Source of the DNA: a bacterium
GTDB taxonomy: Bacteria > Planctomycetota > JADGBV01
Reading direction: 5' to 3'
NCBI GenBank assembly: GCA_023261545.1
Contig: JAHFOS010000002.1
Span: 62,590-126,589, forward strand
DNA length: 64,000 bases
Part shown: positions 3,001-34,003 of the stretch, piece after piece
How positions within the stretch are numbered: the stretch's first letter is position 1
How the letters are laid out: each line of letters starts with the position of its first letter
The notes under the pieces: model-generated
Database searches by the model: none
The model's input: the letters and a program-made list of their open reading frames with translations, nothing else
Told to the model about the DNA's origin: nothing
Translations under genes and position numbers: made by a program

Positions 3001-4664
3001 ACCACCGCCATCCCGCCCCACCAGGGATCCTTGTAGGTGATGTCGTACTTGATGCAGTGGCTCCCGGAATGCGGAGTTTCGGCGCAGTTGTAGGTGGAGG
3101 CGTTGATCGTCGCCCCGTCCAGCATCCAGTTGGTCCAATACCCGTGGTTCAGCGGGTCGTCCGCATCCTTGTAGATGTAGAAGTTTTCACTGCTGGTGTT
3201 GCCCGAGGATGATGCGCCGCCCGAGCTGGTGTTGCCAGAGGACGTGCCCGTATCCGTTGTGGACTCGGGGGGCAACGCGGCGGGCGCCGTCGGCACGGGC
3301 ACCGATGAGTCGCTGTAAAAAGGGAAATCCGCAACGGCCGACTTGTTAGCCCCATCGCGCGCGTAGGCGAAAAAGCGGTACGCGCCAGCGGTGGACGGAA
3401 CCTTGAAGATGGCTTTGCCGCCGGACTTCTGCACGATGGCGCCCTGCACCACGGCGGGCGCGGAATTCACGCCTCCGAACCAGTCGGTATAGTTGGGGAT
3501 TTCAGGGCGCACTTCGTAGGTATAGGTGAGCGCGGCGCCTTCAGGGTCCGTCACGTTAAAGGTGACAAGATACTGGCCGCTGGGAGCCACCTTGGCTTGG
3601 GCCGCCGTGCTGCTGATCGAGCTGATTTCCGGGGCGCGATTGGTCGGGTACGTCCCTTTCCATGCATATTGCAGGGTATCAATGGCGCCCAGGGGATAAC
3701 CCGCCCAGGTCTCGGTCAGGAACATGGAAAACCAAGCATGGGTGCAGACGTAGCGTTGATTCGGCTCGATGCCCCAGAAGTAGGCGTAACCCCCCAAGCT
3801 ATAAGTCTTCACGGCGGTATTGCTGGGCTTGACGATGCTGGAGTTCCACTGCGATAGGTAGGAGGTTGCCTTCTGTGTGCTCGTGAGATCGATCCGGGCA
3901 GACCAGGACGTGGTGGGAGCTTGTCCCCAGGGCGCCCTGGGCCCGAATTCCGTGACCATGTAGGGCCGATCCAGTCCGGCGCCAACAATCGTGCTCGCCA
4001 AGGCGTCCATGTCGCCCCCGTAAGCATTGATGCCGATGGTGTCAAGGCTAGGGCAATAGGTTTTGACCGCGTCCATCTTGGACTTGGTGATCATAGCCCA
4101 AACCGTGGACGTGGGGTGGTTCGGATCCGCCGCTTTGATGGAGGCCGCGAGCTGCTGCACCGCATTCCAGACGTTGGCATCGGCGCCGCCTTCGTATTCG
4201 TTGCCGATGCTCCAGATGGCGATGGCGGGGTGATTCTTGTAGGTGTTGACGTAAGCAAGCAGGCGGTCGTGCTGCTCCTTCACCTGCGCCGCGTTGGCAT
4301 AGCTGATTTCGCCCGGCTTTGAGATCCACAGGCCCGCGCACACCGTCAACCCCAGGGCCTGCGCGCGGTCGTAGGTCTGGGGATCTGAGGCGGCACCCCA
4401 GGTACGCACGGAGTTTCCGCCAGCATCCTTGATAGCCTGCAAGTAAGCGCTGGTGCTGAGGCTGCTGTCCACGCCGCCGCCCTTGAGGAAATAGGCGGCG
4501 CCATCGTGCGTGAGGCCGTAGCTGCCGTCTCCGTTCTTCACCACTTTCGTGACGCCGGCTTCAGCTCCTCCCAGCAGCGCGACGGCTATGCCGCAGAAAA
4601 TAAAAAACAGCGCCGGCACCCCGGCGAAGCCCCGCGTGCGGGACTGTAGCGTTGATTCTTTCAT
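1..4664 (-). CDS. Partial (3' end off-window) giant secreted modular glycoside hydrolase. Domain order: signal peptide, clan GH-A (GH5-like) TIM-barrel catalytic domain, Ig-like domain, four tandem ~230-aa CBM-like beta-sandwich modules joined by G/S/T/N-rich linkers, Thr/Ser-rich tail
   Basis: Manual reverse-complement translation from ATG at 4664-4662: MKESTLQSRTRGFAGVPALFFIFCGIAVALLGGAEAG (signal peptide). Catalytic motifs AIWSIGNEYEG (acid/base Glu) and YMVTEFG (nucleophile Glu) are typical of clan GH-A. Repeated module WTNWMLDGATINASTYNCAETPHSGSHCIKYDITYKDPWWGGMAVV...GQDGGEKVSFTMGSLNGQKYGDSAK...KAWTKYELD occurs four times. No stop codon before window position 1, which explains why the ORF track (complete ORFs only) lacks it. 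Confidence 0.75.
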   Translation of the reverse strand, partial: MKESTLQSRTRGFAGVPALFFIFCGIAVALLGGAEAGVTKVVKNGDGSYGLTHDGAAYFLKGGGVDSSLSTSAYLQAIKDAGGNSVRTWGAASDPQTYDRAQALGLTVCAGLWISKPGEISYANAAQVKEQHDRLLAYVNTYKNHPAIAIWSIGNEYEGGADANVWNAVQQLAASIKAADPNHPTSTVWAMITKSKMDAVKTYCPSLDTIGINAYGGDMDALASTIVGAGLDRPYMVTEFGPRAPWGQAPTTSWSARIDLTSTQKATSYLSQWNSSIVKPSNTAVKTYSLGGYAYFWGIEPNQRYVCTHAWFSMFLTETWAGYPLGAIDTLQYAWKGTYPTNRAPEISSISSTAAQAKVAPSGQYLVTFNVTDPEGAALTYTYEVRPEIPNYTDWFGGVNSAPAVVQGAIVQKSGGKAIFKVPSTAGAYRFFAYARDGANKSAVADFPFYSDSSVPVPTAPAALPPESTTDTGTSSGNTSSGGASSSGNTSSENFYIYKDADDPLNHGYWTNWMLDGATINASTYNCAETPHSGSHCIKYDITYKDPWWGGMAVVSQANYWGDVEASPQSPPYNLTGAKKLIFWARGQDGGEKVQFTMGSLNGQKYGDSAKSPPKSGTLTLNKDWTKYELDVSGQDLSRIVNPFSWFGIGSASQVRQVFFLDDVYYEFSSSSTTGSSSGNTTGGTTGTTSGNSTGTSSGNSTGGTASGNSSGGSTTGASDGKFYVYKDSDDASNHGYWTNWMLDGATINASTYNCTESPQSGTHCIKYDISYKDPWWGGMAVVAAPNYWGDVPLPEGSAPYDLTGAKKLVFWARGQDGGEKVSFTMGSLNGQKYGDSAKTPPKSGTLTMNKAWTKYELDVSGQDLSRIVNPFSWFGYGSGNQVRQVFFLDEIYYEFAVSGNSTTGGSGTSSGNSASGGGTSSGNSGTGTSSGNSTGGTSSGNSSGGSTNTGGTSSGNSTGGTASGNSSGGSTTVGGSSSGNAGDGNFYIYKDAEDPLNHGFWTNWMLDGATINASTYNCAETPHSGSHCIKYDVTYKDPWWGGMAVVSQPNYWGDVPSAPENPAYNLTGAKKLVFWARGQDGGEKVSFTMASLNGQKYGDSAKTPPKSGNLTLNKAWTKYELDVSGQDLSRIVNPFSWFGIGSADQVRQVFYLDDVYYEYSSSSTSGSSSGNTTGGTTGNSGTGTSSGNSTGGSTSGASSGGSSSGNAGDGKFYVYKDSDDASNHGYWTNWMLDGATINASTYNCAETPQSGSHCIKYDITYKDPWWGGMAVVAQPNYWGDVPSAQENPAYDLTGAKKLVFWARGQDGGEKVSFTMGSLNGQKYGDSAKTPPKSGTLTLNKAWTKYELDMSGQDLSRIVNPFSWFGIGSADQVRQVFYLDEIYYEYPPVTTTTGGSSSGNSTSGTGTSSGNSSTGGSSSSSSGTSSGNTSSGTTTAGGTSSSGSGTTTSGSTSSSTSSGGTSGTSSGTGSTTTTTTTSSTTSSSSTVPPADLPVSTDGNRNGYPDAVEQYYLSHTPTGVMLPLELAPKPEGGVVTYSWPGVAGYTRALGNIKIT
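560..3250. repeat. Four tandem near-identical ~690-780 bp direct repeats (coding repeats of the CBM-like module inside the giant hydrolase gene)
   Basis: The same antisense artefact ORF (MPNHEKGLTILERSWPL...FLAPVRS) recurs at 565, 1243 and 2023 on the + strand. The minus-strand translation gives four copies of the same module with only a few substitutions. Confidence 0.8.
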
Positions 4665-5637: not shown

Positions 5638-5679
5638 TGGCCCGCCGCGAACCGCCAACTCCTGCCTGAAGGAAAGCCC

Positions 5680-6891
5680 ATGAAGATCACGCACATCGAA
5701 ACCCTGCGCGTCATGAAGTGGCCCCAGAACATCTGGGTGCAGATCCACACCGACACCGGCCTCGTCGGGCTCGGCGAAACCTTCTACAATGCTCCCGGCG
5801 TGCAGGGGTCGGTGCTGGAACACTTCGGCCCCATGCTCATCGGGCGCAACCCCTGCGAGGTGGAGCGGCATTGGGAAGCGATGTTCCGCGTGAGCGAGCA
5901 CGCGGGTTACGGCGGGGCCGAACTCCGGGCCATCTCGGCCCTGGACATGGCGCTCTGGGACCTCAAGGGCCAGGCGGCGGGTCTGCCGGTTTACGAAATG
6001 CTGGGCGGCGCGACGCGACGCCGCGTGCGCTTGTATGCCACCAGCCTCAGCCACCAGCAGCCCGCGGAGATCGCCAAGGGTCTCATGGATCAGGGCATCT
6101 TCGCCATCAAGGGCGATCCCTTCATCTCCTTCTGTCTTGAGAGCGATGGGCAGTTCATTTCCGCGGCTGATATCGAGCGCGGCCTCAGGCCCGTGCGCGC
6201 CATCCGCGACGCCGTGGGCGATGCCATGGAAATCGCCATTGACACGCACGGCAAATGGAACCTGCCGGTGGCCATGAAGCTGGCGCAGGCCATGGAGCCC
6301 TACAACATCCTATGGTTCGAAGATCCCATGCGCATGGTCTGCCCCGAAACGCTGAAACGGCTGCAGGAGGGGACGCGCATCCCGCTGTGCATTTCCGAGC
6401 GGCTGATGACGCGCTGGCAGTTCCGCCAGTACATCGAGAGCGGCGCCGCGCGCATCGTCATGCCGGACCTGATATGGACGGGAGGCATCTCCGAGACCCA
6501 CAAGATTGCCATCCTGGCCTCGGCCCACGAGGTGCCGGTGGCGCCCCACGACTGCACCGGGCCGGTCAACATGTTCGCCTGCGCCCAGATCTGCATGAGC
6601 GCGGCCAACGTCATGATCCAGGAGTATCTCCCGGTTTACCACCAGGGCTGGTACGCGGAGGTGGTGGACCCCAACCTGGACGTGCGCGACGGCTGGCTCT
6701 ACGCGCCGGAAAGGCCGGGCATCGGCACGCGCCTCAAGCCCGAGGTGCGCGGCCGTTCCGATACGGTCATCGCCGTTTGCAAGGAGGCACGAGAGAGTTA
6801 CATTGACCACTGGGTCGCGCCACCCGGCCTGCGCTCGCCGCGCATGGAGGCGGAAACACAAAAAATGCGCGAGGAAAGAGGACCGCGATGA
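5680..6891 (+). CDS. Enolase-superfamily dehydratase (mandelate racemase/muconate lactonizing enzyme family; galactonate/sugar-acid dehydratase-like)
   Basis: MKITHIETLRV...WVQIHTDTGLVGLGET N-terminal capping domain. TIM-barrel metal ligands AIDTHG...WFEDP...E. Start overlaps next gene by 4 nt (operon). Confidence 0.85.
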   Translation: MKITHIETLRVMKWPQNIWVQIHTDTGLVGLGETFYNAPGVQGSVLEHFGPMLIGRNPCEVERHWEAMFRVSEHAGYGGAELRAISALDMALWDLKGQAAGLPVYEMLGGATRRRVRLYATSLSHQQPAEIAKGLMDQGIFAIKGDPFISFCLESDGQFISAADIERGLRPVRAIRDAVGDAMEIAIDTHGKWNLPVAMKLAQAMEPYNILWFEDPMRMVCPETLKRLQEGTRIPLCISERLMTRWQFRQYIESGAARIVMPDLIWTGGISETHKIAILASAHEVPVAPHDCTGPVNMFACAQICMSAANVMIQEYLPVYHQGWYAEVVDPNLDVRDGWLYAPERPGIGTRLKPEVRGRSDTVIAVCKEARESYIDHWVAPPGLRSPRMEAETQKMREERGPR

Positions 6892-8150
6892 ATCCCATGG
6901 ATCTGCATATCACCAGAATAGAAACCGTCATTCCCACCGCCATCATGCCGGGCCTGGTGCTGGTGCGCGTGCACACCGATGCCGGCATCGTCGGCTGCGG
7001 GGAGAGCTACTACACCCCGCACGCGGTGGCGGCCATGATCCACGACTGGATGGCGCGGCGCCTCTTCGACCGCGCGGTGCCGTTCTCGGTGGAGGGCACC
7101 TGGCGCTTCCTCTACGAGCGCGCGGCCAACTTCGGCACCCAGGGCTGCGAACTGCGGGCGCTGTCGGCCATTGACCTGGCGTTATGGGACATCATGGGCC
7201 AGCTCACCGGCCAACCGATATGGGCGCTGCTGGGCGGGCCGGTGCGCGACCGCGTCCCGGTGTACAACAGCAGCGGCGGCCCGAGCTATGGCGCGCGCCG
7301 CGACGGCCACACCGATCCCCAGGGCTGGCCCGGTTACGGCGACGTCGGGGAAAAAGGACCGCTCAATGATTACTGGTCCATCGTGAACCAGCCGGTGGAA
7401 TACGCCGGCGAGCTCATCGCCTCGGGCACCAAGGCCCTCAAGACCTGGATCTTCGACTTCGCCGCCCACAAGCCGAATGGTGGCCTGCATATCAGCCACG
7501 CGGATATCGAGACGGGCCTGAAGCCGCTGCGCGCCATCCGCGAACGCTGGGGAAAATCCATCGAAATCATCCTCGACGGCCACGGCTTCTTCCAGTTGCC
7601 CGCCGCCCTGCGCATCGCCCGCGCCCTGCGCGAAATAGATCCCCTGTGGCTCGAAGACGTCATACGCCCGGACTGCATTGACACTATCAGCGACTTCCGC
7701 AACAAGGCCGGGGTTCCGGTGGCTGTGAGCGAGATGATGGTCGGCCACGAGGACTACCGCCTGGTGCTGGAGAAGCGCGCCGCCGACTACATCATGATCG
7801 ACCCCACCTGGGTGGGCGGCATCTCCCAGACGCGGCGCGTCGCCCAGATGGCCCAGGCCTACAACCTCCCCGTCACCATGCACGATTGCACGGGGCCGCT
7901 CACGCTGCTGGCCGGGGTGCAAATCGCCGCCGCGACCCCCAACGTGGCCTGGCAGGAGACGGTGCGCGCCCACCTGCAGTTCGTCTATCCGCGGCTCATT
8001 GACGAACGCCTGGCCATCGTGGAGGGACACATCGCCCTCCCGCGCCGGCCCGGGCTCGGAGCCGGCCTGCTCCCGGAGCTGTTCAGTCCCAAGCAGCCGG
8101 ACTACCGCGAAAGCCGGGCGCCGGCTCCCGGAGCCGCAAAAGCCGGCTAA
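6888..8150 (+). CDS. Second enolase-superfamily (MR/MLE) dehydratase, tandem paralog
   Basis: ITRIETVIP...LVLVRVHTDAGIVGCGES...ILDGHG...LWLEDV; ATGA overlap with upstream gene. Confidence 0.85.
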   Translation: MNPMDLHITRIETVIPTAIMPGLVLVRVHTDAGIVGCGESYYTPHAVAAMIHDWMARRLFDRAVPFSVEGTWRFLYERAANFGTQGCELRALSAIDLALWDIMGQLTGQPIWALLGGPVRDRVPVYNSSGGPSYGARRDGHTDPQGWPGYGDVGEKGPLNDYWSIVNQPVEYAGELIASGTKALKTWIFDFAAHKPNGGLHISHADIETGLKPLRAIRERWGKSIEIILDGHGFFQLPAALRIARALREIDPLWLEDVIRPDCIDTISDFRNKAGVPVAVSEMMVGHEDYRLVLEKRAADYIMIDPTWVGGISQTRRVAQMAQAYNLPVTMHDCTGPLTLLAGVQIAAATPNVAWQETVRAHLQFVYPRLIDERLAIVEGHIALPRRPGLGAGLLPELFSPKQPDYRESRAPAPGAAKAG

Positions 8151-8157
8151 GACGGCC

Positions 8158-9408
8158 TCAGCCCAGGAACCAGGGAGCGGGCAGGGCCAGGATGCCCTCG
8201 CCTAGATCCCGCACCTCGGGATCATTGCTGAGAACGAAAGCTCCCAGCACCGGCTTGTCCAAGATTTCACGCAACCGAAAGAGGTGCTTGGCGTCACCAG
8301 GACTGACGCGGTTCGCTTTCTTGATCTCGATGGGGACGAAACCGTTTTCCAGCTCCAGCAGCAGGTCCACCTCCAAGCCATCTGAGGTTCGCAAATGGTG
8401 GAACTGGATACGCAGGTCGAGGGACCGCGCTTGCTTGTAGATTTCTGCCACCACGGCGCCCTCGTACTCAAATCCAGTGAGGTCCCCACTCCTGCCCGCC
8501 ACGGCTTGCTGGACGCCTGGATCCAGCCAGTGCAGCTTGGGCGTTTTCACCAGCCTTTTGAGCCGGTTCCTGAACCAAGGCCGCAGGACGATGACCTGGT
8601 AGCTGATTTCAAGGTAACTCAGGAAACGCTTGGCGGTCTGCGGCGCGATGCCGGCCTCCCTGGCCAGCGTGCTGTGGTGGACTTGCTGCCCCACGAGCTC
8701 GGCCAGGCACCGCTGGGCCAGCACGAAGGGCTCCAGATCCCTAATCGCGACCAGATCGCGCAGGTCGCGCTGGAGGTAAGTCTGAACATATTGGTGAAGC
8801 CAGTCCCGTTTCTCTTTTTCCCCCAGATCCTCCGCCAGCACCTCCGGCAACGCGCCGAAACTCAGATAGCGCTCAAACAACAGTTGGGCCTGGGCATAGC
8901 CCTTGTCCCCCGCGGGAATTCCCAGGAACAGGGCCGTATCCTTGGGGCCGCCGGCGATCCAGCGTTGGAAGCGGGAAACCGGAATATCCTCGGACCAGGA
9001 AGCCGTCCGCATCTCCGGAATCGTGAGGGGAAATAGCTCGAAAAGGGCCGCCCTTCCCGCCATGCTTTCCCGGACTTGGCGCAACATCAGGATTTGGCTC
9101 GAACCCGTGAGGATAAAGCGCATGTCGGCGTGGGCATCGAAGGCCGCCTTCACCGACTCGAAGAGGGCGGGCGCCTTCTGCACCTCGTCGAGAATCACGT
9201 TCTGGAAACGCTCGCGCCACTGGACCGCCGACAAGCGGGTGTACTGGGGCCGCAGTATGGGATCATCCAAGGATATATAATCGTAGCCCTCCAGTTGCCG
9301 GACCAGGGTCGTCTTGCCGGTCTGGCGCGCCCCAGAGAGAACCACCAGTCGCCCATGTCGAGAGGCGATTTTTTCCTTCAATCGCCGCAGCAGTATCCGG
9401 TTCTTCAT
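8158..9408 (-). CDS. AAA_14 / DUF4143-family ATPase (paralog 1 of 3)
   Basis: Walker A LVVLSGARQTGKTTL, Walker B-like FILTGSS, then the long C-terminal DUF4143-like region. Same architecture as 25203-26468 and 47539-48825. Confidence 0.8.
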   Translation of the reverse strand: MKNRILLRRLKEKIASRHGRLVVLSGARQTGKTTLVRQLEGYDYISLDDPILRPQYTRLSAVQWRERFQNVILDEVQKAPALFESVKAAFDAHADMRFILTGSSQILMLRQVRESMAGRAALFELFPLTIPEMRTASWSEDIPVSRFQRWIAGGPKDTALFLGIPAGDKGYAQAQLLFERYLSFGALPEVLAEDLGEKEKRDWLHQYVQTYLQRDLRDLVAIRDLEPFVLAQRCLAELVGQQVHHSTLAREAGIAPQTAKRFLSYLEISYQVIVLRPWFRNRLKRLVKTPKLHWLDPGVQQAVAGRSGDLTGFEYEGAVVAEIYKQARSLDLRIQFHHLRTSDGLEVDLLLELENGFVPIEIKKANRVSPGDAKHLFRLREILDKPVLGAFVLSNDPEVRDLGEGILALPAPWFLG

Positions 9409-9546
9409 GGCAATTTAATGGCGTAAAAATGATATGTTATAGTTGTTAATATACGCCAAAAATTTAATATTAAAGATATTAAATACGCTTTATCACCAGG
9501 CCATCGTCCCCTGGGAAGGGACTCGCGCGCCGGAGGATCTGGGCAC

Positions 9547-10620: not shown

Positions 10621-12627
10621 TCACAACGAGTTGCAGATCTTGACGATGCGCAGGAAGTGCAGGCGGTTCCAGGACTGGTTTTTGATGCGCGGGCGGTTCA
10701 ACAGGTCCGTGATGAGAGCGCGATCCTGAAGGCCGTCCAGGATGGAGCAGTTCTTCCCCAGCGCCACCAGTTCCTCCTTGATCATCAGCTCGAACCTGGC
10801 CAGATCCGACTGCGCCTTGCGCACCTCGCGGTAGATTTGCGTGAAGTCATCCAGCAGCCTCTCCAGCTCGGCGCCGACGGAGGTGTTCAGGACGAGCGGC
10901 TGGTTCCTGAGCATCCCCGAGACGCGGTTCAGATCCCCGCCGATTTTTGATTTGTCGAGACGCAGGTACTCCTGGTACTCCGCGTCGCCCTGCCGCGAAA
11001 TTTCATTGTCCCTTTGCAGCAGTTTGCAGGAGACGAAACAGACGTAGCGGAGCAATTCCAACAGCTCCTGCGGCAGGAATTGCACGCCCGACTCTCCGGA
11101 CGGAAGCTGGTGGGACTCACGGATGGAAGATCGCAGCCTGTCCAACTTCAACAGGACGAGCTCGGCCACATGGCAGGACTTGATGTACACCAGCCATTTC
11201 TTCAGGGTCCCCAGAGGCGTGCCGGACGCGATGGCTCCGGGCTGGCTGATGAGGGATTGTTCGATGTTCGAAAGGGTCCTGTCGTAGAGAGTTTGCAGGG
11301 AAAAGGGGTTGATTTTCCGGTTCCTGCCAATCTGGGCCAGCAGCTCCACGAGTTCCCCGAGGCTCTTGCCCTTGATGCTGACGAGCCCTTCGATATTCAG
11401 GTCCGCGTCCATAGTCAGCGTTTTTTCCTGCCCCAGGTCGTAGCTCACGTTTTGCAGGAGGTTGGCGAAGACGGGAAAAATATCGAGCTGTTGGCGGGTG
11501 CGGCGCTCTTTGGAGCATTGCTCGAAGGATTGGGGAATGGTCCTGGCGAACAGGAGCGTGGTCAGAACCCCCGAGAAATCCTTTTTGATGTCGCCATCGC
11601 CCTTGAGGTAGGGCAGTTCCATCAATTGGTTCAACTGGCCGAGCTGCTCGTCCAGCGTGTCCTGGAGTTTTTGCAGGTTGTTGCGCAGGGCGGGCATGGA
11701 GTCCGCGGGAACGTTCTCCGCGTATTTGGCCCTGATCTTGCAGACCAGCAAACGACTCAGGGGAGGCTCAAGGTTCGTCAGCTCGCGGCGGATCAGCTCG
11801 CGCGAAGATCGGACATAGGCCCGCGCGTTCTCCTTCTGGTCGCGCATGTCGGATCGCGCGGAAACCATGGAGGAATCGTTCATGAGGTCCGCCAAGCGCT
11901 TTAAAATATCGTTCTGTCGCAGATCCCAGGTCTGGACCAGCTCGCTTTCCGCCGCTTTGTGGCTGCGGATGGCGCTGATCTCCGCATGCCGCTCCCCGAG
12001 CGCCGCATGGGTTTCATTGATGAGATAGATATCCTCCAGGCGGCGGTGGATCAGCAGGAAAATCTGGATGGCGAAGCGCGCCTCGCCCTTGCCGGCGAAG
12101 ATGTTCTGCAGGGCCTCCTGATCGGCCGCCGCGGTCAGCACCAGCCCCTTGTCGGAGAGCCGCAGACCGGAAATCCTGCCTTCGATGTCATTGGCGCAGG
12201 CGGCTTTCGCCGATTCCAGGTCCGCCATCCCCGAGGTGTCAATAAAGTGTTGCAGCGTCTTGAAGAACTCCTCCTGGTCGGGTTTCGAGAAGTTCTTGCG
12301 TTCCACGATCTGTTTGATGAGCCGCTCGGGGAAGGAATACCCGGCCATGTGCTCGAAATACGCGCGCAGCCGGCTCAGGTTGTAGAGCTTGGGGTTGCTG
12401 CTCTGAAAGGGCATCAGCCTGGAGAAGGGGAATATCTCCTCCAGCTCAACGCCCGTTGATTTCTCAATGCCGCCGCTCACCCTGCCTGTTTTAACCCGCC
12501 AGCTCGCCGCGCCAGCCAGATCGACCACGCCGAGCCACGCGCGGGGGCACTCTGGGAGCAGGAAACGCTGCCCGAGAGTGGCGCCTGTGCTACGGCTGGC
12601 TCTCTGGGAGGTGCGGGCCCAGCGCAA
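10621..12627 (-). CDS. Large hypothetical alpha-helical protein (up to 668 aa). The start is uncertain: the TTG at 12627 may be an over-extension, and ATG at 12414 is an alternative
   Basis: Long uninterrupted ORF with coding-like composition and no P-loop or other known motif. First gene of a three-gene minus-strand operon. Confidence 0.55.
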   Translation of the reverse strand: MRWARTSQRASRSTGATLGQRFLLPECPRAWLGVVDLAGAASWRVKTGRVSGGIEKSTGVELEEIFPFSRLMPFQSSNPKLYNLSRLRAYFEHMAGYSFPERLIKQIVERKNFSKPDQEEFFKTLQHFIDTSGMADLESAKAACANDIEGRISGLRLSDKGLVLTAAADQEALQNIFAGKGEARFAIQIFLLIHRRLEDIYLINETHAALGERHAEISAIRSHKAAESELVQTWDLRQNDILKRLADLMNDSSMVSARSDMRDQKENARAYVRSSRELIRRELTNLEPPLSRLLVCKIRAKYAENVPADSMPALRNNLQKLQDTLDEQLGQLNQLMELPYLKGDGDIKKDFSGVLTTLLFARTIPQSFEQCSKERRTRQQLDIFPVFANLLQNVSYDLGQEKTLTMDADLNIEGLVSIKGKSLGELVELLAQIGRNRKINPFSLQTLYDRTLSNIEQSLISQPGAIASGTPLGTLKKWLVYIKSCHVAELVLLKLDRLRSSIRESHQLPSGESGVQFLPQELLELLRYVCFVSCKLLQRDNEISRQGDAEYQEYLRLDKSKIGGDLNRVSGMLRNQPLVLNTSVGAELERLLDDFTQIYREVRKAQSDLARFELMIKEELVALGKNCSILDGLQDRALITDLLNRPRIKNQSWNRLHFLRIVKICNSL

Positions 12628-12635
12628 AAAAAACT

Positions 12636-12664
12636 TGACTCGGTGGCCCCCTTCGCATATAATG
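12636..12664 (+). promoter_or_regulatory. Near-perfect sigma70-type promoter: TTGACT, 17-bp spacer, TATAAT
   Basis: Sequence aaaaaaaacTTGACTcggtggcccccttcgcaTATAATgctaaatcgg. It is followed by an AAGGGA Shine-Dalgarno about 7 nt before the ATG at 12691. Confidence 0.45.
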
Positions 12665-12690
12665 CTAAATCGGTTTAATTAAGGGATATT

Positions 12691-12918
12691 ATGGAAAGCA
12701 AGCGAAACCCAGGCGCCGCCGCGGGAGATCGGCGCTTCGAGCCCCCCGGCCCCATCGCCGGCGCGGGTCGGGCCGGGGAAGCGGCCAAGAGTCCGGCCCT
12801 GGATCGCTGGCGCACGTCGCTGTTTCTAGGTGACGCGCGTCCCCCCTGGATCTCCGAGTCCCGCCGCGGCCCCCAGGCCCTGAAGCGCCTGCTCCAGCGG
12901 CGCGGGATGGTGGATTAG
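12691..12918 (+). CDS. Possible small leader ORF (75 aa, G/A/P/R-rich). Could instead be 5' UTR of the downstream gene
   Basis: Good SD and consensus promoter upstream, but the product is low-complexity. Confidence 0.25.
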   Translation: MESKRNPGAAAGDRRFEPPGPIAGAGRAGEAAKSPALDRWRTSLFLGDARPPWISESRRGPQALKRLLQRRGMVD

Positions 12919-15515
12919 TGAAACGCGCTGGCCTGCTGCTGGCGCTGCTGGTCCGGGGTGCCCTAGAGCTCAGCGCCGCCTCCACCCCTGTTCTGCCCCC
13001 CGAGGAGACGCCCGCCATCCCGCCTTCCGCGGGAGTGGCCCTTGCGGCGACCTCCTTGGTTGTGAGTTCTGGAAACCTCGAGCTGCATTTGGCCAGAAAC
13101 GCCGGAGGTGTTCAAGTGACGAGCCTCCGGGATACGGCCACGGGCACCGAGTTGCAGGCGGGTTCGCTGCGTCTTCCCCTTTTCACCCTGGTCTTGGGGA
13201 ACAACTCCCAGCTCAACGCCGATAGCGGCTGGGGCAAGGTGGAGCTGGCCGCCATTCCAGGCGGAACCTCCTTGCGCTGGAGCGGGGCGGGCGCGGTGCC
13301 GGGCTTGGCAGTGGTGGCCAATCTGCTGCCGGATTCCGGAAACAGCGCCTTGGAGTGGGCGCTGAGCGTGGAGAACACTTCCTTGCTGCCCGTGAGCCGC
13401 GCCATCTTTCCGCAGTTCGCCGTCGCCGATCTCGGAAGCAGTGGCCGCGTTTTCCTGCCGCGCGGGCCGGGGGAAGAGGTGCTTGGCGCCTGGAGCAGCG
13501 CCTTCACCTACAGCGAACTCTATCCCAATGGCTGGAGCGCCAGCCTGCAAGTCCTTGCCGCCTATAACGGCGCCACCGGCCTGTATTTCGCCATGCACGA
13601 TGCGAGTGGCGCAACCAAGCACATTGGCGCCTACGGCTTGCCCGCCTTCAAGGCCGTGAAGTTCGTCTTCGAGCATTTGCCTCCCGGCAGCGCCTCTTCC
13701 GGCAGCTCTTTCACCCTCCAGGGCCGCGGCGTGTGGCGCCTGCTGCGGGGCGATTGGTTCGATGCCGCCCTGGTCCACCGCGAGTGGGCGAGCTTGCAGC
13801 CCGCCATGCTGCCCCCCGATAGAGCGGCGGGAAGCAGCGCGACGCCGCTGTGGATGCGCGAGCTTGGCGTCTGGACCCAGGCCGCCGGCACCGACGCGGC
13901 CACCATCGCCTCCGTCCAGGCCTTTGCCAGATACATGGGCGTGCCCACGGGCTTCCACTGGTACACCTGGCACGCTATTCCTTTCGATAACGATTATCCC
14001 CACTATTTCCCGCCACGCGCCGGCTTCGCCGCGGGGGTGAAAGCCCTCCAGGCCACGGAGCCCAGGATCCGCGTCATGCCCTACATCAACGGCCGGCTGT
14101 GGGATACCCGGGACCAGGGCACTTCTGACTTCGAGTACACGGCGCTGGCGAAACCCGCGACCACCAAGGACGCCGCCCTCGCGCCCAACACCGAGAGCTA
14201 CGGCAGCCTGGAGGCGGATGGCTCTCCGGTGAAACTAGCCGTCATGTGTCCGGCCACCTCCCTGTGGCAAAGCCGGCTGCGCACCATCACCCTGGAGCTT
14301 TTCAAATCCTACGGGGTGGACGGCGTGTATCTGGACCAGATCGCCGCCGCCGCTCCTAAGCTCTGCTACGACGGCGGCCACCCGCACCCCCCGGGCGGAG
14401 GGCGCTGGTGGGTGGACGGTTATCGCAATTTGTTGGCCGGAATCCGCAATGAGATGCCGGCGGATCGCATGCTCACCAGCGAGTCGGCGGTGGATACCTT
14501 CAACGCGGGCTTCGATGGCTACCTGGTGTGGAACTGGCAGCGCAACAATATGGTGCCCGCCTTCAGGGCGATCTATGGCGGAGCCGTCCAGCTTTTCGGA
14601 CGAAACTATAGCGGTGGCCTGCCCCGCGACCTGTCGGTGTGCCAGCGCGCCGGGCAACAGCTCGTCTTCGGCGAGCAACTGGGATGGGCTTTTCCTGGGA
14701 TCATCTACGAAAATTCCGCTCCCTTCCTGCGCGACTGTGCCCGGCTCCGCAACCGCCTGGCGCCCTACTTTTACGCCGGGCGCATGGAACGCCCGCCGCG
14801 TTTCACCGGCGCCAATCCGCCGTGCACCTCCGACTGGCAATGGCAGGGCGCGGCGACGCCGGTGACCACGCCCTCGCTGCTCACGGGCGCTTTCACGCGG
14901 CCTGAAGTCCAAAGCACGATCCTCGTTTTCGCCAATATCTCCGAGACCACCCAGTCGGGCAGCGTGAGCTTTGACGGCGCAACTTATGACCTCAGCGGCA
15001 ACGCGGTTCACCTGCGGGTGGTGCGACCGCAGGCCACGGACACTGCCGTGGCGCAATCGCTCGCTTTCCAGAAAGCTCTGGTATTGCCAGCGCGTTCCGT
15101 CCAAGCCTGGGAAATCGTCGTGGCCCCGGTCGAAGCCGGCGCGGGTGGCGGAACTATTCCCGTTCCAGCCGATGCCGTGCCTTCGGGAAACACCTCCAAT
15201 GGCGCCGGGGTACCCGCGCCCACCCCGGATGTCGGCGCGGCGCCGGCCAACCAAGCGCCCGTGGTGAATGCTGGACTTGATCTGACGGTGACGTTGCCGA
15301 GTGGCGCAAGCCTGAACGGTTCCGCCACGAATGACGGCCTGCCCGCGGGAAACGCGCTGCTTTACAACTGGAACAAGGTTTCAGGCTCCGGGACCGTGAC
15401 CTTTGCCGCTGCGACGGCCTCAGCAACCACGGCGACTTTTCGACTTCAGGAACCTACGTTCTGCGCCTCACGGCCCACGACGGCCTGCTTTCCGGCAGCG
15501 ACGACACGCTGGTGA
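12918..15515 (+). CDS. Secreted glycoside-hydrolase-like protein (DUF6259-like TIM-barrel region) with a C-terminal PKD/K319L-like Ig domain. The reading frame is broken at a T-run at 15437-15440
   Basis: GTG start with signal peptide MKRAGLLLALLVRGALELSAAS. Region FHWYTWHAIPFDNDYPHYFP...VDGVYLDQIAAAAP. C-terminal VVNAGLDLTVTLPSGASLNGSATNDGLP...YNWNKVSGSGTVTFAAATASATTATF is a typical PKD-like repeat that stops abruptly. Confidence 0.65.
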   Translation: MKRAGLLLALLVRGALELSAASTPVLPPEETPAIPPSAGVALAATSLVVSSGNLELHLARNAGGVQVTSLRDTATGTELQAGSLRLPLFTLVLGNNSQLNADSGWGKVELAAIPGGTSLRWSGAGAVPGLAVVANLLPDSGNSALEWALSVENTSLLPVSRAIFPQFAVADLGSSGRVFLPRGPGEEVLGAWSSAFTYSELYPNGWSASLQVLAAYNGATGLYFAMHDASGATKHIGAYGLPAFKAVKFVFEHLPPGSASSGSSFTLQGRGVWRLLRGDWFDAALVHREWASLQPAMLPPDRAAGSSATPLWMRELGVWTQAAGTDAATIASVQAFARYMGVPTGFHWYTWHAIPFDNDYPHYFPPRAGFAAGVKALQATEPRIRVMPYINGRLWDTRDQGTSDFEYTALAKPATTKDAALAPNTESYGSLEADGSPVKLAVMCPATSLWQSRLRTITLELFKSYGVDGVYLDQIAAAAPKLCYDGGHPHPPGGGRWWVDGYRNLLAGIRNEMPADRMLTSESAVDTFNAGFDGYLVWNWQRNNMVPAFRAIYGGAVQLFGRNYSGGLPRDLSVCQRAGQQLVFGEQLGWAFPGIIYENSAPFLRDCARLRNRLAPYFYAGRMERPPRFTGANPPCTSDWQWQGAATPVTTPSLLTGAFTRPEVQSTILVFANISETTQSGSVSFDGATYDLSGNAVHLRVVRPQATDTAVAQSLAFQKALVLPARSVQAWEIVVAPVEAGAGGGTIPVPADAVPSGNTSNGAGVPAPTPDVGAAPANQAPVVNAGLDLTVTLPSGASLNGSATNDGLPAGNALLYNWNKVSGSGTVTFAAATASATTATFRLQEPTFCASRPTTACFPAATTRW

Positions 15516-16120
15516 CGGTGAACCCGGACCCCGACGGTGATCGCGACGGCCTGCCGGATATTTGGGAGCAGGCGCATGGCTTGAACCCCCTGACCGCGGA
15601 GGACGCGACCCAAGACGCTGACAACGACGGCCTGAGCAATCTGGCGGAATACCAGCGCGGGACGGCCATGGACAAGGCTGATACGGATGGCGACGGCCTG
15701 CCGGACGGTTGGGAAGTGGCCCGCGGTTTGAACCCCAGCGCGGCCAGCGATGCGGCCCAGGACGCGGACGCCGACGGCCTCACCAATCTCCAGGAGTACA
15801 CGCTGCACGCGGATCCCCACAACCGCGATTCGGACAGCGACGGTTTGCCGGATGGTTTCGAGGTGGCGCACGGGCTGAGTCCGACGCAGAGCAACGCCAG
15901 CGCGGACACGGACAACGACGGCGTGAGCGACGTGCAGGAGTACCTTCTGGGTCGCGACCCCGCCACCGCTGAGCCGCCGGAAAGCTCCGTGTCCAGTGGG
16001 CCCACCACAACCACCGGGACTTCACCCCTCGTAGCGAGCACGCCGGCGGAGGTCCTGGCAACGGCGGCGAAGATCCAAGCCCCCAGCAGCGCTGGCGGCG
16101 GATGTCTTTTCAGCTTTTAG
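15512..16120 (+). CDS. Frameshifted C-terminal continuation of the 12918 gene: end of the PKD-like domain followed by thrombospondin type-3-like calcium-binding repeats
   Basis: Frame +2 from 15441 reads STSGTYVLRLTAHDGLLSGSDDTLVTVNPDPDGDRDGLPD, the canonical end of a PKD-like domain. Repeated DxDxDGLxDxxE motifs follow (DADNDGLSNLAEY, DTDGDGLPDGWE, DADADGLTNLQEY, DSDSDGLPDGFE, DTDNDGVSDVQEY). Confidence 0.55.
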   Translation: MTVNPDPDGDRDGLPDIWEQAHGLNPLTAEDATQDADNDGLSNLAEYQRGTAMDKADTDGDGLPDGWEVARGLNPSAASDAAQDADADGLTNLQEYTLHADPHNRDSDSDGLPDGFEVAHGLSPTQSNASADTDNDGVSDVQEYLLGRDPATAEPPESSVSSGPTTTTGTSPLVASTPAEVLATAAKIQAPSSAGGGCLFSF

Positions 16121-16144
16121 CGGGAGGCCCGGCCAGCAACGGCG

Positions 16145-16723
16145 TCACCCCTCCTCCTGGGACTGCCCCTTGAACTGGCTCTCCTTGGAGGCGAAAAGCA
16201 GGTTGAAAGAAGTCAGGCTGCCGTAGCAGCGCGAGATGTAGCCGTCGAGTTCCAGCTTCTCCTCGGGGGAAAGGGAGGGGTGGTTGTTGATCTTCTGCTC
16301 CAGGACGCGCAACTTCTCGCGGACGGTGATGAGTTTTTTGAAGAAAACCTCAAGGGGCAGTTCGCGGGGTTGGGTCTCCTCGCGTCCGGGAACCAGCTTC
16401 AAGCTGCCGCCGACCCAGCGCTTGCCCATCTCCAATTCGCTTTCGATAAACCCCCAATCATCCATGGATTCACGCACCGCCTGGCGGATGCGGTCGAGCT
16501 CGGGATCTCCGGCAGCATGGAGCGGCTTCATGGCCTCGAAGCTGAAGGCCACCACCGTGGCCTCGCCGCCTTTGAAGAGCACGCGATAACCCTCGCTGGT
16601 GTAGCCCACGATACGCCCCGTGCCCTTGAAGGGATGCTGGACCAGGATGCCCAGTCCCAGCTTTGGCCGCTGCGGTGTTGCTTCGCTCATGAGGTCAGTC
16701 TGACTTGTGGAGAAAAGGATCAA
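16145..16723 (-). CDS. Hypothetical protein (192 aa) with a small N-terminal beta-barrel-like motif (DUF3553/CarD-like G..V.H..FG.G.V pattern)
   Basis: LGILVQHPFKGTGRIVGYTSEGYRVLFKGGEATVVAF; complete ORF with coding-like composition. Confidence 0.5.
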   Translation of the reverse strand: MILFSTSQTDLMSEATPQRPKLGLGILVQHPFKGTGRIVGYTSEGYRVLFKGGEATVVAFSFEAMKPLHAAGDPELDRIRQAVRESMDDWGFIESELEMGKRWVGGSLKLVPGREETQPRELPLEVFFKKLITVREKLRVLEQKINNHPSLSPEEKLELDGYISRCYGSLTSFNLLFASKESQFKGQSQEEG

Positions 16724-16781
16724 TGGAGACAGACTTGAAGGGGAGTTGCGTGGGGTTTACAGGCGCGGTCAGGTTATTTAA

Positions 16782-17036
16782 GGCTCATCCGACTAATGCG
16801 TACTTTTCTGGAGTTTTTAACACGGGTGCACGGTCGAGCAAGGCTAGAACCAAAGCGAGCTGCCGGGGGATTTTCCACAGATTGCACAGATTAACACTGA
16901 TAATAATCAATCCGGGCCATCCTTTCTAATCGGTGCAAATCTGTGTAATCTGTGGATGCTCCCGAGTTGAGAACGCAGAGAGCCGAGAACAAATGAGGGG
17001 GAACCCTGCCAGAGGTACGCATTAGTCGGAGGCGCC
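16782..17036. mobile_element. MITE-like non-autonomous element, copy 1 (~255 bp). It has ~22-bp terminal inverted repeats and an 8-bp target-site duplication TTATTTAA
   Basis: Left end GGCTCATCCGACTAATGCGTAC, right end GTACGCATTAGTCGGAGGCGCC. Flanking direct repeats TTATTTAA at 16774-16781 and 17037-17044. Internal inverted pair CCACAGATTGCACAGATTAACAC / GTGCAAATCTGTGTAATCTGTGG. A second copy lies at 62931-63181. Confidence 0.6.
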
Positions 17037-17087
17037 TTATTTAAAGCGCCAACTGTGCAGGCAAGGTAAGACATGGCATGCACATGG

Positions 17088-17501
17088 CTAAATTTTTCCA
17101 ACATTGGCTTTTCCCACAAAACTCTCCAGCGTCATAATCTCTACCTCCGGCGCGTATTCGATATGATTCCGGAGTCCTCCGCTCGTGTAGAATTCCCGAA
17201 GACGCCACCCCTCGCCGCCCAACACCAAATAGGCCTTCTCGAACTCGCCGCTTCGCACCGCCTCCAAAAGGCAGATGATTTCGAATGGCACCTTCTGTTC
17301 CGCTGTTCCCCCTACCTGCTGCCATTTGAGAGACAGCAGCATTTTTCGGCTGTTCTTTGCGATTACGGCGTCCACCTTATGCAGACCACCACCCGGCCTT
17401 CTGCCGATATTGACCTGCTTTTCCCACACATATCCGCCGTGATTCAGGGCGGGCAGCACCATCGCTTCGAGAATCCCTCCGGTGCTGGTGTTTCGCCCCA
17501 T
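17088..17501 (-). CDS. Putative small restriction-endonuclease-like protein (PD-(D/E)xK-like fold) coupled to the Dam-family methyltransferase
   Basis: Translationally coupled (1-nt overlap) directly downstream of the methyltransferase. Motif pattern: helix with Glu (GGILEAMV), then HKVDAVIAK, then LLSLKWQ (S-x-K in place of E-x-K). Locally lower GC. Confidence 0.45.
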   Translation of the reverse strand: MGRNTSTGGILEAMVLPALNHGGYVWEKQVNIGRRPGGGLHKVDAVIAKNSRKMLLSLKWQQVGGTAEQKVPFEIICLLEAVRSGEFEKAYLVLGGEGWRLREFYTSGGLRNHIEYAPEVEIMTLESFVGKANVGKI

Positions 17502-18382
17502 CAGAGATTACGCAGTGCTAGTATCTCGCGTACTGGTGTGCGATCCCCGGTGCAACTGATGCGCCGGGGAGCCTTGAGGAATGCCAGCTTGTAGCCGAGG
17601 TTCTCATAGAGGCTCACTATGCGATCCGTGGCCTGATTGGAGAGAACCACAGGGCCCGGATGACGACACAGCCAATTGGCTAGGCGTTCTTGGTCCGCCC
17701 ATGTGAAGTCCTCTTTGGCGTAACGTGTAAACTCAACATCGTAGGGCGGGTCAGCGTAAACAAAGTCATCAGGGAGAAGCGACACCTTCTCAAAATCTTC
17801 GCAGAGAAATGTCCATCGCCGTGTCACCGTGCGAAAGCTCGTGAAGTCCCGGGCGTAGTTGATGGTGGCATAGCGGCCGAAGGGGACGTTAAATTTTCCA
17901 CTGCTGTTGAAACGGCAGAGGCCGTTGAATCCCGTGCGGTTCAGGTAATAGAACAGGGCTGCCGCCTCGCCGCTCTTGCGGCCACCATTGGAAATCAAGG
18001 CATTGAAACTTCGGCGATTCTGTTCGTAGACGTCTCGGTCATTCATCATGCACACATCAGCAAGTGCGCCGCGCTTCAAAGCCCGATAGAAGTTAATGAG
18101 GTGGGGGTTAATGTCATTGAGAAGAGCTCGGGAAGGTCCAAATCCCAATGTGACCGCCAGCCCCCCGCAAAAAGGCTCCACGAGACGACGGCTGCGGTAC
18201 GGTACCCAGAGGGGTAGCAAGTGTGGCACCAACCATCGCTTACCCCCCGCCCATTTGAGAGGTGGTGTCGAGGCGCACTTCCGCGCGCTTTTCCCAAACA
18301 TTGTCGCCGGTGCCGCCATCTTATTCATCACCCGGTCCATCTTACCCCCTCCCCAAAGCCGCAAATGTCCGATTTCGTCCAC
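17501..18382 (-). CDS. Dam-family N6-adenine DNA methyltransferase
   Basis: PLKWAGGKRWL (motif I region of the Dam family) and catalytic DPPY (YADPPYD). The true start is probably an internal Met (MNKM or MFGK). Confidence 0.85.
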   Translation of the reverse strand: MDEIGHLRLWGGGKMDRVMNKMAAPATMFGKSARKCASTPPLKWAGGKRWLVPHLLPLWVPYRSRRLVEPFCGGLAVTLGFGPSRALLNDINPHLINFYRALKRGALADVCMMNDRDVYEQNRRSFNALISNGGRKSGEAAALFYYLNRTGFNGLCRFNSSGKFNVPFGRYATINYARDFTSFRTVTRRWTFLCEDFEKVSLLPDDFVYADPPYDVEFTRYAKEDFTWADQERLANWLCRHPGPVVLSNQATDRIVSLYENLGYKLAFLKAPRRISCTGDRTPVREILALRNL

Positions 18383-18719
18383 ATTCTATTCACTCCCCCT
18401 GGCGCGGCTTCCTGCTGGCCCACACCCTCTGTCTCGCCTACCTCGCCATCTTCCTGCGCTTGCGGCGCATCCCCCTGTCCCACGAGCGCGCGGCGCTGGC
18501 CTGCACGCTGATCTTCGGCCTGCCGGCGCTGCTTGTTTTCCTTTCCCCGCCGCTTTTCAAGAAGCGCGCCGCCTGCAGCGCCTGCCGCCAGCGTATTCCC
18601 GTCACCTTGCCCACCTGCCCCTGCTGCGGGGCGCCGACGTCGTGAGGCGATAGGTCTGCCGTGCGTCCCAGAGGGAGATGGCGGCGTATCCAGCTCGCTA
18701 TATCGGATAGCATGTTACA

Positions 18720-19010
18720 ATGATCAAGAGTATCGCGGGCCGGATCACACAGGATATCTACGATGGCACGGATAGCCGAAACGCGCGCAAGGTTCCCGTC
18801 GAGCTGCACGGCAAGAGCCGTCGGCTCCTGGATCAGATCAACGCGGCCGCGCGCATTGAAAATATGCGCGTTCCCCCCGGCAACAGGCTCCAGGCCCTTG
18901 CCGGCGATCGCAAGGGTTTTTGGAGCATTCGCGTCAATGATCAATGGAGGGTCGTGTTTCGCTGGATCGACAACGACGCTTATGATGTGGAAATCACGGA
19001 TTACCATTAA
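18720..19010 (+). CDS. higB: HigB-like toxin (RelE/ParE superfamily, plasmid maintenance system killer)
   Basis: MIKSIAGRITQDIYDG...PPGNRLQALAGDRKGFWSIRVNDQWRVVFRWIDNDAYDVEITDYH matches the HigB signature (GNRLE.L.GDR.G.WSIRIN.QWRI.F.W....A..V.I.DYH). Confidence 0.8.
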   Translation: MIKSIAGRITQDIYDGTDSRNARKVPVELHGKSRRLLDQINAAARIENMRVPPGNRLQALAGDRKGFWSIRVNDQWRVVFRWIDNDAYDVEITDYH

Positions 19011-19019
19011 GGAACGCTG

Positions 19020-19316
19020 ATGTTGCCAAGAAACCGACCGCCCACCCATCCCGGAGAGATGCTTTTCAAAGAGTTCATTGAACCGAGCGATATCACGCAG
19101 AGTGCTTTTGCCAGGCACCTGGGCTGGTCTTTCGCCAGACTCAATGAGATCGTGCGCGGCAAGCGCGGCGTCACCGCAGACTCGGCTCTATCTTTCGGTG
19201 AGGCGTTGGGCACGGGACCAGAATTCTGGCTCAATCTGCAAAGGAATTGGGATTTGTGGCATTCGCAGCGGAAACATAGGCCGGTCGGACCCCTTAAATC
19301 GTTGGTGAGGCGCTGA
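19020..19316 (+). CDS. higA: HigA antitoxin (XRE-family helix-turn-helix)
   Basis: HPGEMLFKEFIEPSDITQSAFARHLGWSFARLNEIVRGKRGVTADSALSFGEALGTGPEFWLNLQRNWDL is the canonical HigA HTH. Located 10 nt downstream of higB. Confidence 0.8.
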   Translation: MLPRNRPPTHPGEMLFKEFIEPSDITQSAFARHLGWSFARLNEIVRGKRGVTADSALSFGEALGTGPEFWLNLQRNWDLWHSQRKHRPVGPLKSLVRR

Positions 19317-21700: not shown

Positions 21701-21825
21701 TTTCATAATAGTTCCGCTCTGTCGAAGATTTTCCAGCCGTTCGCCCTTCATCCCCAGCTTTGGGGGATGAGTTTTTCGAATGGCCACGAAGCGGGCCACT
21801 AGGGGTGGATAGCGGTGGTGCCGAG

Positions 21826-21866
21826 ATCCGTTCATGCTTCGACAAGCTCAGCACGAACGGATCTGA
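21826..21866. terminator. Perfect hairpin (9-bp stem, 21-nt loop) between convergent moeA and moaD. The sequence is related to the REP-like repeat family
   Basis: GATCCGTTCATGCTTCGACAAGCTCAGCACGAACGGATC; the loop sequence CTTCGACAAGCTCAG is shared with the elements at 33826, 34892 and 47215. Confidence 0.4.
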
Positions 21867-21917
21867 TTGCCATTCACTTCAAACGAAAACCCATTCCTCG
21901 GGCTGAATTGTGTAGGC

Positions 21918-25202: not shown

Positions 25203-26468
25203 TCAAGCGTTCTCCGCCAGCAAGAACTCCATGAGGTCTAAACGGCGAATGCCATCTAGATCGCTGCCCCAGGCGGGATCCAGGCTCAGCACCAGTTTGG
25301 GGTAATGGTCCTTGATGGCTTTGAGCGGTCCGAACTCGCGGGCCACCGTAGCGGGGCTGGCCAGGAGATAGGCGACCTGGATGTAGAGCTTGTCGCCAAC
25401 GCGGGTGGCGACAAAGTCCACCTCCGCGTTTTGGAGCTTGCCGATACAGACCTCATAGCCGCGGCGCTTAAGCTCCAGGAAGACGACGTTTTCCAGGATG
25501 CCGGAGATATCCGCCTCGCGATAGCCGAGCACGGCGTGCCGCAGGCCGAGGTCTCCGAGGTAGTATTTCTCGTGGATCTCGAGCAGACGCCGACCCTTCA
25601 GATCGTAGCGCGGCACTCGGTACGCGAGCAGGGCCTCGCAGAAATGGCCGAGGTAATGCTGCACGGTCTCGACGCTAACGGTCAGGCGTTGCGCTTTCAA
25701 GTGATCCGCGATGCGCTTGGCGGAAATCACACTTCCGATATTGTCCATGATAAATCGGCCCAGGCTTTCCAGCAAAGGCACGTTGCGGACGGCGTGCCGC
25801 CGCACGACATCCTTGAGCAGGATGGAGTCGAAAACCGAGCGGCTGTAGGGAAGAGCCGTTTCATCCCGCAAGGGAAAATGGTGCAGACCGGGCAGACCGC
25901 CGTAGCGCAAGTAGAGACGGAAAGCTTCGCGGCGGTCGGCCACGGCGGCGGAATGAAAGGCCAAAAACTCGGTAAAGCCCAGGGTGTAGACGGGGAACTC
26001 GAGATAACGCCCGGTCAGCAGCGTGGCCAGCTCGGAAGAGAACAGATGGGCGTTGGAGCCCGTGAGGATAATATCCAGATCGGCACGGGCGGAAAGAGGA
26101 GCCACCGCCCTTTCCCACTGCCCGATCTCCTGGACCTCGTCAATAAGAAGATACTTCCGACCACCCTTTTTCCCGAGCAGCGGCCTCGCGATTCGGTCCA
26201 GATCACGGTAGGTGACGATGTCCTCGAATTCCAGCGATTCCTTGTCAATGTACAGGATGTTGGTGGCCGGAACCTTTTCCCGCTCCAGGAGATCCACCAT
26301 CAGCAGTTTCAACAGACAACTTTTGCCAGCGCGACGCATGCCAGTCAGTATCTTGACGACTGGCTTGCCGATGAACGGCCGGATGCGCTCGGCGTAGATA
26401 TTTCGGCTGTGGATAAAACTTGCTTCTGAATTCATGAAAGTTTTCGATTTGGACGAAATTATCCACAT
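25203..26468 (-). CDS. AAA_14 / DUF4143-family ATPase (paralog 2)
   Basis: Walker A ILTGMRRAGKSCLL, Walker B YLLIDEVQE, and the C-terminal DUF4143-like region. Confidence 0.8.
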   Translation of the reverse strand: MWIISSKSKTFMNSEASFIHSRNIYAERIRPFIGKPVVKILTGMRRAGKSCLLKLLMVDLLEREKVPATNILYIDKESLEFEDIVTYRDLDRIARPLLGKKGGRKYLLIDEVQEIGQWERAVAPLSARADLDIILTGSNAHLFSSELATLLTGRYLEFPVYTLGFTEFLAFHSAAVADRREAFRLYLRYGGLPGLHHFPLRDETALPYSRSVFDSILLKDVVRRHAVRNVPLLESLGRFIMDNIGSVISAKRIADHLKAQRLTVSVETVQHYLGHFCEALLAYRVPRYDLKGRRLLEIHEKYYLGDLGLRHAVLGYREADISGILENVVFLELKRRGYEVCIGKLQNAEVDFVATRVGDKLYIQVAYLLASPATVAREFGPLKAIKDHYPKLVLSLDPAWGSDLDGIRRLDLMEFLLAENA

Positions 26469-26597
26469 TTCCCGCCGACGTCAATCTGAAGCAACGCCAC
26501 ACCCCTCCCTCAGACCCAGGCTCCGATACGCTTGTGCCGGAGAGTTCGGTGCGCGTCGGGAAACGGCAGGGCCGCGCAAGGCGGCATCTGCCGTGGA

Positions 26598-33825: not shown

Positions 33826-33960
33826 CTGTAAGCGTTCAGCCCGTAATTGCCTTCGCATCGCGGCATCAACAACCAGGCCCGTTCGTGCTGAGCCTGTCGA
33901 AGCATGAATGGGCCGAAACCTCCCGCCGTTCACCCTTCGACAAGCTCAGGGCGAACGGCG
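33826..33960. repeat. REP-like double-hairpin repeat element, copy A (~135 bp), immediately after the sucC stop
   Basis: GTAAGCGTTCAGCCC...AGGCCCGTTCGTGCTGAGCCTGTCGAAGCATGAATGGGCC...CCGCCGTTCACCCTTCGACAAGCTCAGGGCGAACGGCG. Each half is a stem-loop, and the two loops are complementary to each other. Confidence 0.55.
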
Positions 33961-34003
33961 AGCGACTTTTCGATAGGGCGGACTACTTGCTGTCGCATTT
34001 TGG

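Follow-up and report, generated by a model that had tools for sequence, protein, structure and literature searches.

We examined a gene at positions 12918-16120 of the forward strand of a 64,000-nucleotide stretch of Planctomycetota DNA (lineage JADGBV01; contig JAHFOS010000002.1 of assembly GCA_023261545.1), the whole of which is called the window here; the features of the gene described below all lie on the forward strand. It is a single gene for a secreted protein of 1067 residues, frameshifted in this assembly. The TTTT run at 15437-15440 lacks one T relative to conspecific sequences, and this frameshift is private to the assembly. The chances are about even that the change from five T (T5) to four (T4) represents a real, very recent deletion specific to a strain or population.

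The first open reading frame (ORF), 12918-15515 (GTG start, frame mod 0, 865 aa), reads up to the break as ...VTFAAATASATTATF (in-frame end ...ATTATF) and loses the true frame at the T run, after which it continues for 24 nonsense codons, RLQEPTFCASRPTTACFPAATTRW, to a TGA stop (15441-15515); the preliminary description of this DNA had counted 20. Frame mod 2 is free of stops from 15335 up to the stop codon at 16118-16120 and reads FSTSGTYVLRLTAHDGLLSGSDDTLVTVNPDPDGD... from 15437. The mechanically called ORF 15512-16120 (GTG start, 202 aa) is this same open frame past its first possible start codon, and is probably just the tail of the 3' segment of the gene (15441-16120, codons 842-1067 plus stop, frame mod 2) and no gene in its own right. 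Adding one T to the run yields a single ORF of 1067 codons with zero internal stops; a length of about 1066 aa had been proposed, which was right as to one protein and short by one residue. The 5' segment in the true frame (12918-15440, codons 1-841) encodes the signal peptide, the DUF6259 module, the linker and the first two thirds of a PKD-like domain.

Independent assemblies of the same organism carry the unbroken gene. The 865-aa product of the window, P0001 in NCBI, is recorded on a single contig of 128,028 bp, and its 90% cluster has one other member, the 1067-aa P0121 from ENA assembly ERZ27296333. P0121 equals the repaired translation except for A984E (window 15866-15868), and its residues 1-841 are identical to the translation of the 5' segment; the T5 state of ERZ27296333 is read from this protein. 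Its 18.5-kb contig is colinear with the window from 10645 to about 29150, its coordinates being offset by 10644 upstream of the gene and by 10643 downstream of it, and 12 downstream genes are equal in length. Since the offset is otherwise constant and these lengths agree, the one base within the gene is the sole net indel in about 14 kb.

At the DNA level, looking up the gene just downstream gave two near-identical MEGAHIT-style (k141) short-read metagenome contigs from other assemblies, L081 (ERZ27280176, 3542 bp) and L082 (ERZ27280021, 2423 bp). Both have unbroken partial ORFs across the site (459 and 485 aa) and read CTTTTTCG where the window reads CTTTTCG; global alignment places window CGAC-TTTTCG (CGACTTTTCG) against CGACTTTTTCG in each. 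T4 versus T5 is the only difference from these contigs in 14663-16120, so that the DNA of the 3' segment is the same in all three; the remaining differences are single-nucleotide polymorphisms (SNPs) at 16959, 16996, 17020, 17041 and 18276, a density of about 1 per kb in the compared region. Five further short contigs match the window at 100% identity. Three haplotypes are thus distinguished: T4 with alanine at residue 984 (window), T5 with alanine (L081, L082), and T5 with glutamate (ERZ27296333). The missing T that had been proposed at 15437-15440 is borne out by the two T5 contigs and the intact P0121, and the 3 of 3 conspecific sequences covering the site read through it, where termination at the same point in orthologs would have spoken against a split gene.

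That both frames belong to one gene is also evident from the domain lying across the break. The Pfam K319L-like PKD model (PF22352) is matched from 1 to 84 of its 84 positions at residues 785-868, in the repaired frame only, with 44.1 bits against a gathering threshold of 27, and the match spans the junction F841/S842. A sequence search of the PDB returned one match, PKD domain 2yrl, at residues 783-863. A PKD repeat of P0267, an unrelated protein from a Planctomycetota metagenome-assembled genome, aligns without a gap across the junction at 66% identity, TTATFSTSGTYVLRLTAHDG against TTASFSTAGTYVLRLTASDG. This conserved domain (15270-15520), an immunoglobulin-like fold broken after residue 841, is therefore split by the frameshift and restored by the one-T repair, much as was first described from the ...ATTATF end and the continuation in the other frame through 15512-16120. 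The end-to-end PKD match, the gapless P0267 alignment and the single extra T in L081 and L082 together mean that the two frames are not aligned by chance. In annotation, the 865-aa and 202-aa ORFs should be joined into a single 1067-aa gene, with no separate entry for a 202-aa "TSP3 protein".

The T4 state could be real, or it could be an error of the consensus. In the second case the true sequence is T5, the gene is intact, and one T was dropped in assembly or polishing; we regard this as a substantial possibility that falls somewhat short of an even chance. Several points weigh against a real deletion. The T4 call was read from assemblies, such that T4 may exist in no real molecule; it is seen in one assembly only, its product is on record from one contig, and all other assemblies covering the site have T5. 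A one-base change of homopolymer length is the commonest class of consensus error. Apart from the T run, the gene in the window matches L081 and L082, down to A984, and the 3' segment, 100% identical to the T5 contigs, is without secondary decay, as an artefact would look; a very recent mutation would likewise leave it undecayed. Finally, the window was singled out for its frameshift, and a clean remainder leaves room for one residual error.

Against an error, the run is merely 4-5 nt long, whereas longer runs in the same gene (C6, G5, C5) agree with the short-read contigs, and of the homopolymer runs of at least 4 nt other than the T run, 86 of 87 agree with independent contigs over 5.8 kb. 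Among about 30 other ORFs in the 64 kb no domain was found split between adjacent ORFs and no other split gene was found, which argues that the assembly is not prone to indels. Neighbouring proteins are mostly identical among the NCBI, Logan (SRR14366772) and ENA sources. Because the assembly of the window looks accurate by these measures (homopolymers, constant offset, identical neighbours, unsplit ORFs), a homopolymer error typical of a sequencing technology is disfavoured. If this was a de Bruijn assembly of accurate short reads, moreover, a T4 path would normally require real T4 reads. Real strain differences exist in this region, namely the SNPs, A984E, and a 520-aa neighbour protein that differs between assemblies (P0133 versus P0134), which makes a private one-base indel plausible; the Logan SRR14366772 proteins carry the NCBI-specific variants, which makes that run probably the one behind the NCBI assembly or one of the same sample. 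We therefore lean towards a real deletion over a consensus error.

Neither the T4 nor the T5 version of the site turned up in JGI metagenome contigs (0 matches). Exact look-ups of T4-specific products found none on record, whether for the 202-aa ORF, for five other possible starts, for three postulated Logan partials or for a postulated 782-aa product cut at its N-terminus; P0001 itself was absent from the contig index. When homologs were sought with the C-terminal 373 aa, multi-repeat PKD/TSP3 proteins filled the results and no conspecific fragments were returned. When GTDB species genomes were scanned with P0121, only relatives of 43-49% identity without the PKD/TSP3 tail were returned, and not the window's own genome; since these relatives have no tail, the scan gives no cross-species test of the junction.

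Whether the allele is real or an error, it is an ordinary single-base frameshift. Frameshifted coding sequences and young pseudogenes with indels in short homopolymers (marked "frameshifted" by NCBI PGAP) show the same one-base change of a mononucleotide run, with intact alleles in close relatives, and as in that class the domain is split over two frames with no further decay. Nothing substantive separates the present case from it; here the accessory C-terminal tail alone is lost, and the gene is not necessarily dead.

The preliminary description had offered sequencing error, recent mutation, and a phase-variable or programmed frameshift site as explanations, and the first two stay viable while the third finds no support. 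For phase variation, the T tract would be a contingency locus in which slipped-strand mispairing toggles at high frequency between T5 (full-length, tethered) and T4 (truncated, released). Tract length does differ among the conspecific assemblies, with T4 in one and T5 in three, and the product is secreted or on the surface, as is usual for such loci; in the homopolymer contingency loci of Neisseria, Haemophilus and Campylobacter, tract-length polymorphism likewise shifts the frame of a secreted or surface gene. Homopolymers in known contingency loci, however, are hypermutable from about 7-8 nt upward (typically at least 7), and the present tract of 4-5 nt is far under that level and unexceptional in a window that holds many homopolymers of 6-9 nt. 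The single variant occurs in 1 of 4 assemblies, no T6 or T3 variant was seen among those compared, and there is no sign of reversible high-frequency switching; we consider phase variation improbable. A related reading, that T4/T5 is a maintained natural polymorphism by which the enzyme is switched between a TSP3-tailed form (which may be held at the surface) and a tail-less released form, is more improbable still; it would act as a low-frequency "public good versus private good" switch without the need for a long contingency tract.

Recoding, by which the T4 allele would yield the full-length protein through a programmed -1 frameshift or transcriptional slippage on U_UUU, has a negligible probability: the zero-frame codons at the run are ACU UUU CGA, and a -1 slip of tRNA-Phe from UUU 15438-15440 to UUU 15437-15439 would re-pair perfectly and restore the TFSTSG junction of P0121, with the rare CGA (5 of 193 Arg codons) as the next zero-frame codon, but a perfect junction is the trivial outcome of deleting one homopolymer base; the run forms no X_XXY_YYZ heptamer, since re-pairing of ACU on GAC is impossible and UUU is followed by CGA where UUN would be required, leaving only U_UUU as slippery; and the minimum free energy of the downstream RNA (15430-15560, 130 nt) is no better than that of shuffled sequences (z = +0.62; 143 of 200 shuffles fold as well). 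Transcriptional slippage needs about 9 or more A or T, for which T4 is far too short. Programmed frameshifts are conserved; here the conspecific sequences all have the protein in a single frame, and more distant homologs are without the C-terminal region altogether. The likeness to the programmed -1 sites of dnaX (A_AAA_AAG) and of IS3-family transposases, where slipping back by one base along identical bases would similarly restore a full-length product, thus ends at the tandem slippery heptamer, the stimulatory structure and the conservation, all three of which are lacking here. Rfam had no match in the window. Programmed frameshifting and classical phase variation were both rejected on these grounds (no heptamer, no RNA structure, a 4-5 nt tract, intact conspecifics).

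The repaired protein of 1067 aa comprises a signal peptide, a DUF6259 module, a low-complexity linker, one PKD-like domain, six TSP3 motifs and a short tail. The predicted signal peptide (MKRAGLLLALLVRGALELSAA, 12918-12980) was read from its basic N-terminus, hydrophobic core and A-x-A-like site; in the AlphaFold2 model, which was built with 43 homologs as input, residues 2-19 form a lone helix followed by a disordered stretch. A glycoside-hydrolase-like catalytic module follows at residues 45-735 (13050-15122), as judged from Pfam, AlphaFold2 and Foldseek. Pfam DUF6259 (PF19773) is matched at residues 266-564 (window 13713-14609) with E 4e-83 and a score of 279.4 bits (cut-off 28.7), the match reaching from position 2 to position 300 of the 300-position model. 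The AlphaFold2 prediction is confident over residues 45-740 (predicted local distance difference test mostly >90), where it has an N-terminal beta-sandwich, a (beta/alpha)8 barrel and a C-terminal beta-sandwich.

Foldseek against the PDB ranked glycoside hydrolase (GH) family GH129 structures highest (8rzk, 5opq, 5wzn), followed by the Flavonifractor A-antigen galactosaminidase FpGalNase (8x1b, 9ayu), GH36 and GH31, with E down to 3e-22, probability 1.00, target-normalised TM-scores of 0.6-0.7 and about 12% identity. The predicted three-domain architecture is the same as in these enzymes (the ZgGH129 3,6-anhydro-D-galactosidase 5opq/8rzk, NagBb 5wzn and FpGalNase among them), but at about 12% identity sequence searches give no link, Pfam returning DUF6259 and the PDB search the PKD domain only. 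Invariant acidic residues, D473, E522 and D533 among them, are seen in the alignment of homologs.

The six bacterial TSP3 calcium-binding motifs, of the form DxDxDGxx[DN]xxE, all lie 3' of the frameshift at 15533-15940, as given by Pfam and the motif coordinates (TSP3_bac, PF18884; E 5.5e-12; 45.7 bits against a gathering threshold of 25). In NCBIfam the MtsD, CglD and Amuc_1099 models were matched in part, each with a score far under its cut-off. Repeated DxDxDG calcium-binding TSP3_bac motifs in a secreted protein are likewise found in Myxococcus MtsD and CglD and in the Akkermansia Amuc_1099 family, but the match is at the level of the repeats only (58.6 bits versus 800 for MtsD and 38.7 versus 50 for Amuc_1099), and in the window protein, unlike those proteins, the repeats are a tail on an enzyme. 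The labels "GH-like", "PKD-like" and "TSP3 repeats", first given to the protein from its sequence alone, thus correspond to a DUF6259 match with GH129/GH36/GH31 structural neighbours and to Pfam matches above threshold.

Upstream of the gene is a promoter-like site, TTGACT-17 nt-TATAAT (12635-12663), with 11 of 12 consensus matches where 0.4 such sites are expected by chance; it is a consensus match only. No second promoter-like site was found in 12400-16800, and none ahead of ORF 15512. A 75-aa ORF (12691-12918) lies directly upstream, its stop sharing one base with the GTG start of the gene (taGTG). The NCBI, Logan and ENA assemblies all have this ORF called with the same sequence; Pfam gives no match to it, and its composition is odd (rich in Gly, Ala, Arg and Pro). 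It may be a leader ORF, or the call may be spurious.

A small mobile-looking cluster (17088-19316) adjoins the gene. It includes a PDDEXK_11 nuclease with a D12-class adenine methyltransferase (17088-18049, minus strand), likely a restriction-modification pair, and a HigB-like toxin with an HTH_3 antitoxin (18720-19316). Between a 181-aa gene and the restriction-modification pair lies one copy (16780-17037) of a 260-bp intergenic repeat, the other copy of which (62928-63182, 82% identity) is just upstream of an ECF (extracytoplasmic function) sigma factor gene (63097-63933); the SNPs between the window and L081/L082 fall mostly in or beside the first copy and were not copied from the second, paralogous one. 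A Sigma70_ECF match and the Amuc_1099-like repeats are weak hints of the Planctomycetota-Verrucomicrobiota-Chlamydiota (PVC) group; the RecA search had its best non-self match at 78% identity.

Elsewhere in the window, positions 1-3300 hold a tandem array of about four units of 680-790 bp (80-89% identity), three of which carry a conserved 76-80-aa ORF (565-795, 1243-1473, 2023-2265; MPNHEKGLTILERSWPL...FVHALFSVR.PDFGGVFAESPYFCPF...); the array has P/E/V-rich stretches (PEEVPPVLFPEDVP), a 72-bp sub-repeat at 1738-1884, and no Pfam or Rfam matches. A dispersed short repeat of about 90-140 bp (85-91% identity; 33827-33960, 34939-35029, 47214-47351, and inverted at 21803-21871) lies in several places, among them both sides of sucD (33977-34885), and resembles a repetitive extragenic palindromic or miniature inverted-repeat transposable element. 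There are three paralogous ATPase genes of the AAA_14 + DUF4143 type, all on the minus strand (8161-9414, 25206-26480, 47542-48885). Two tandem mandelate racemase/muconate lactonizing enzyme (enolase superfamily) paralogs at 5638-8150 have open frames that overlap by 85 nt; a second frameshift was considered here and rejected, as both paralogs have complete N- and C-terminal domains and are separate genes.

In this species the gene encodes one secreted protein of 1067 residues; if the deletion is real, the window is an allele with one T deleted from T5. Translation after expression from the upstream promoter-like site would then give an 865-aa product in which the signal peptide and catalytic module are complete but which ends within the PKD domain with the 24 nonsense residues and is without all six TSP3 repeats; the downstream 202-aa ORF would be a by-product and no gene. 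The truncated enzyme may still be active, because the catalytic module is all there is to many homologs about 700 aa long, and it would lack what the calcium-binding tail contributes, presumably anchoring to the cell surface or to a substrate. In that event the T4 allele would be a small natural experiment on the contribution of a PKD/TSP3 tail to a secreted enzyme.

The protein itself is of more interest than its frameshift. For DUF6259, more than 1,200 homologs reach E <= 1e-10; they carry the lineage labels Planctomycetota, Verrucomicrobiota, Chloroflexota and Armatimonadota, with Candidatus Fervidibacter sacchari among them, and about 120 alignment columns are invariant over 44 sequences (e.g., HWYxWHxIPFDNDYPHY and MPYINGRLWD). 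The homologs examined (43-49% identity) cover only residues 45-735 or so, which argues that the PKD/TSP3 tail is a lineage-specific accessory. The PDB sequence search found no solved structure of a DUF6259 member, and literature searches in one library found no paper mentioning the family, nor any on SRR14366772. With a predicted fold resembling that of GH129, GH36 and GH31 enzymes, DUF6259 is a candidate new glycoside hydrolase family.

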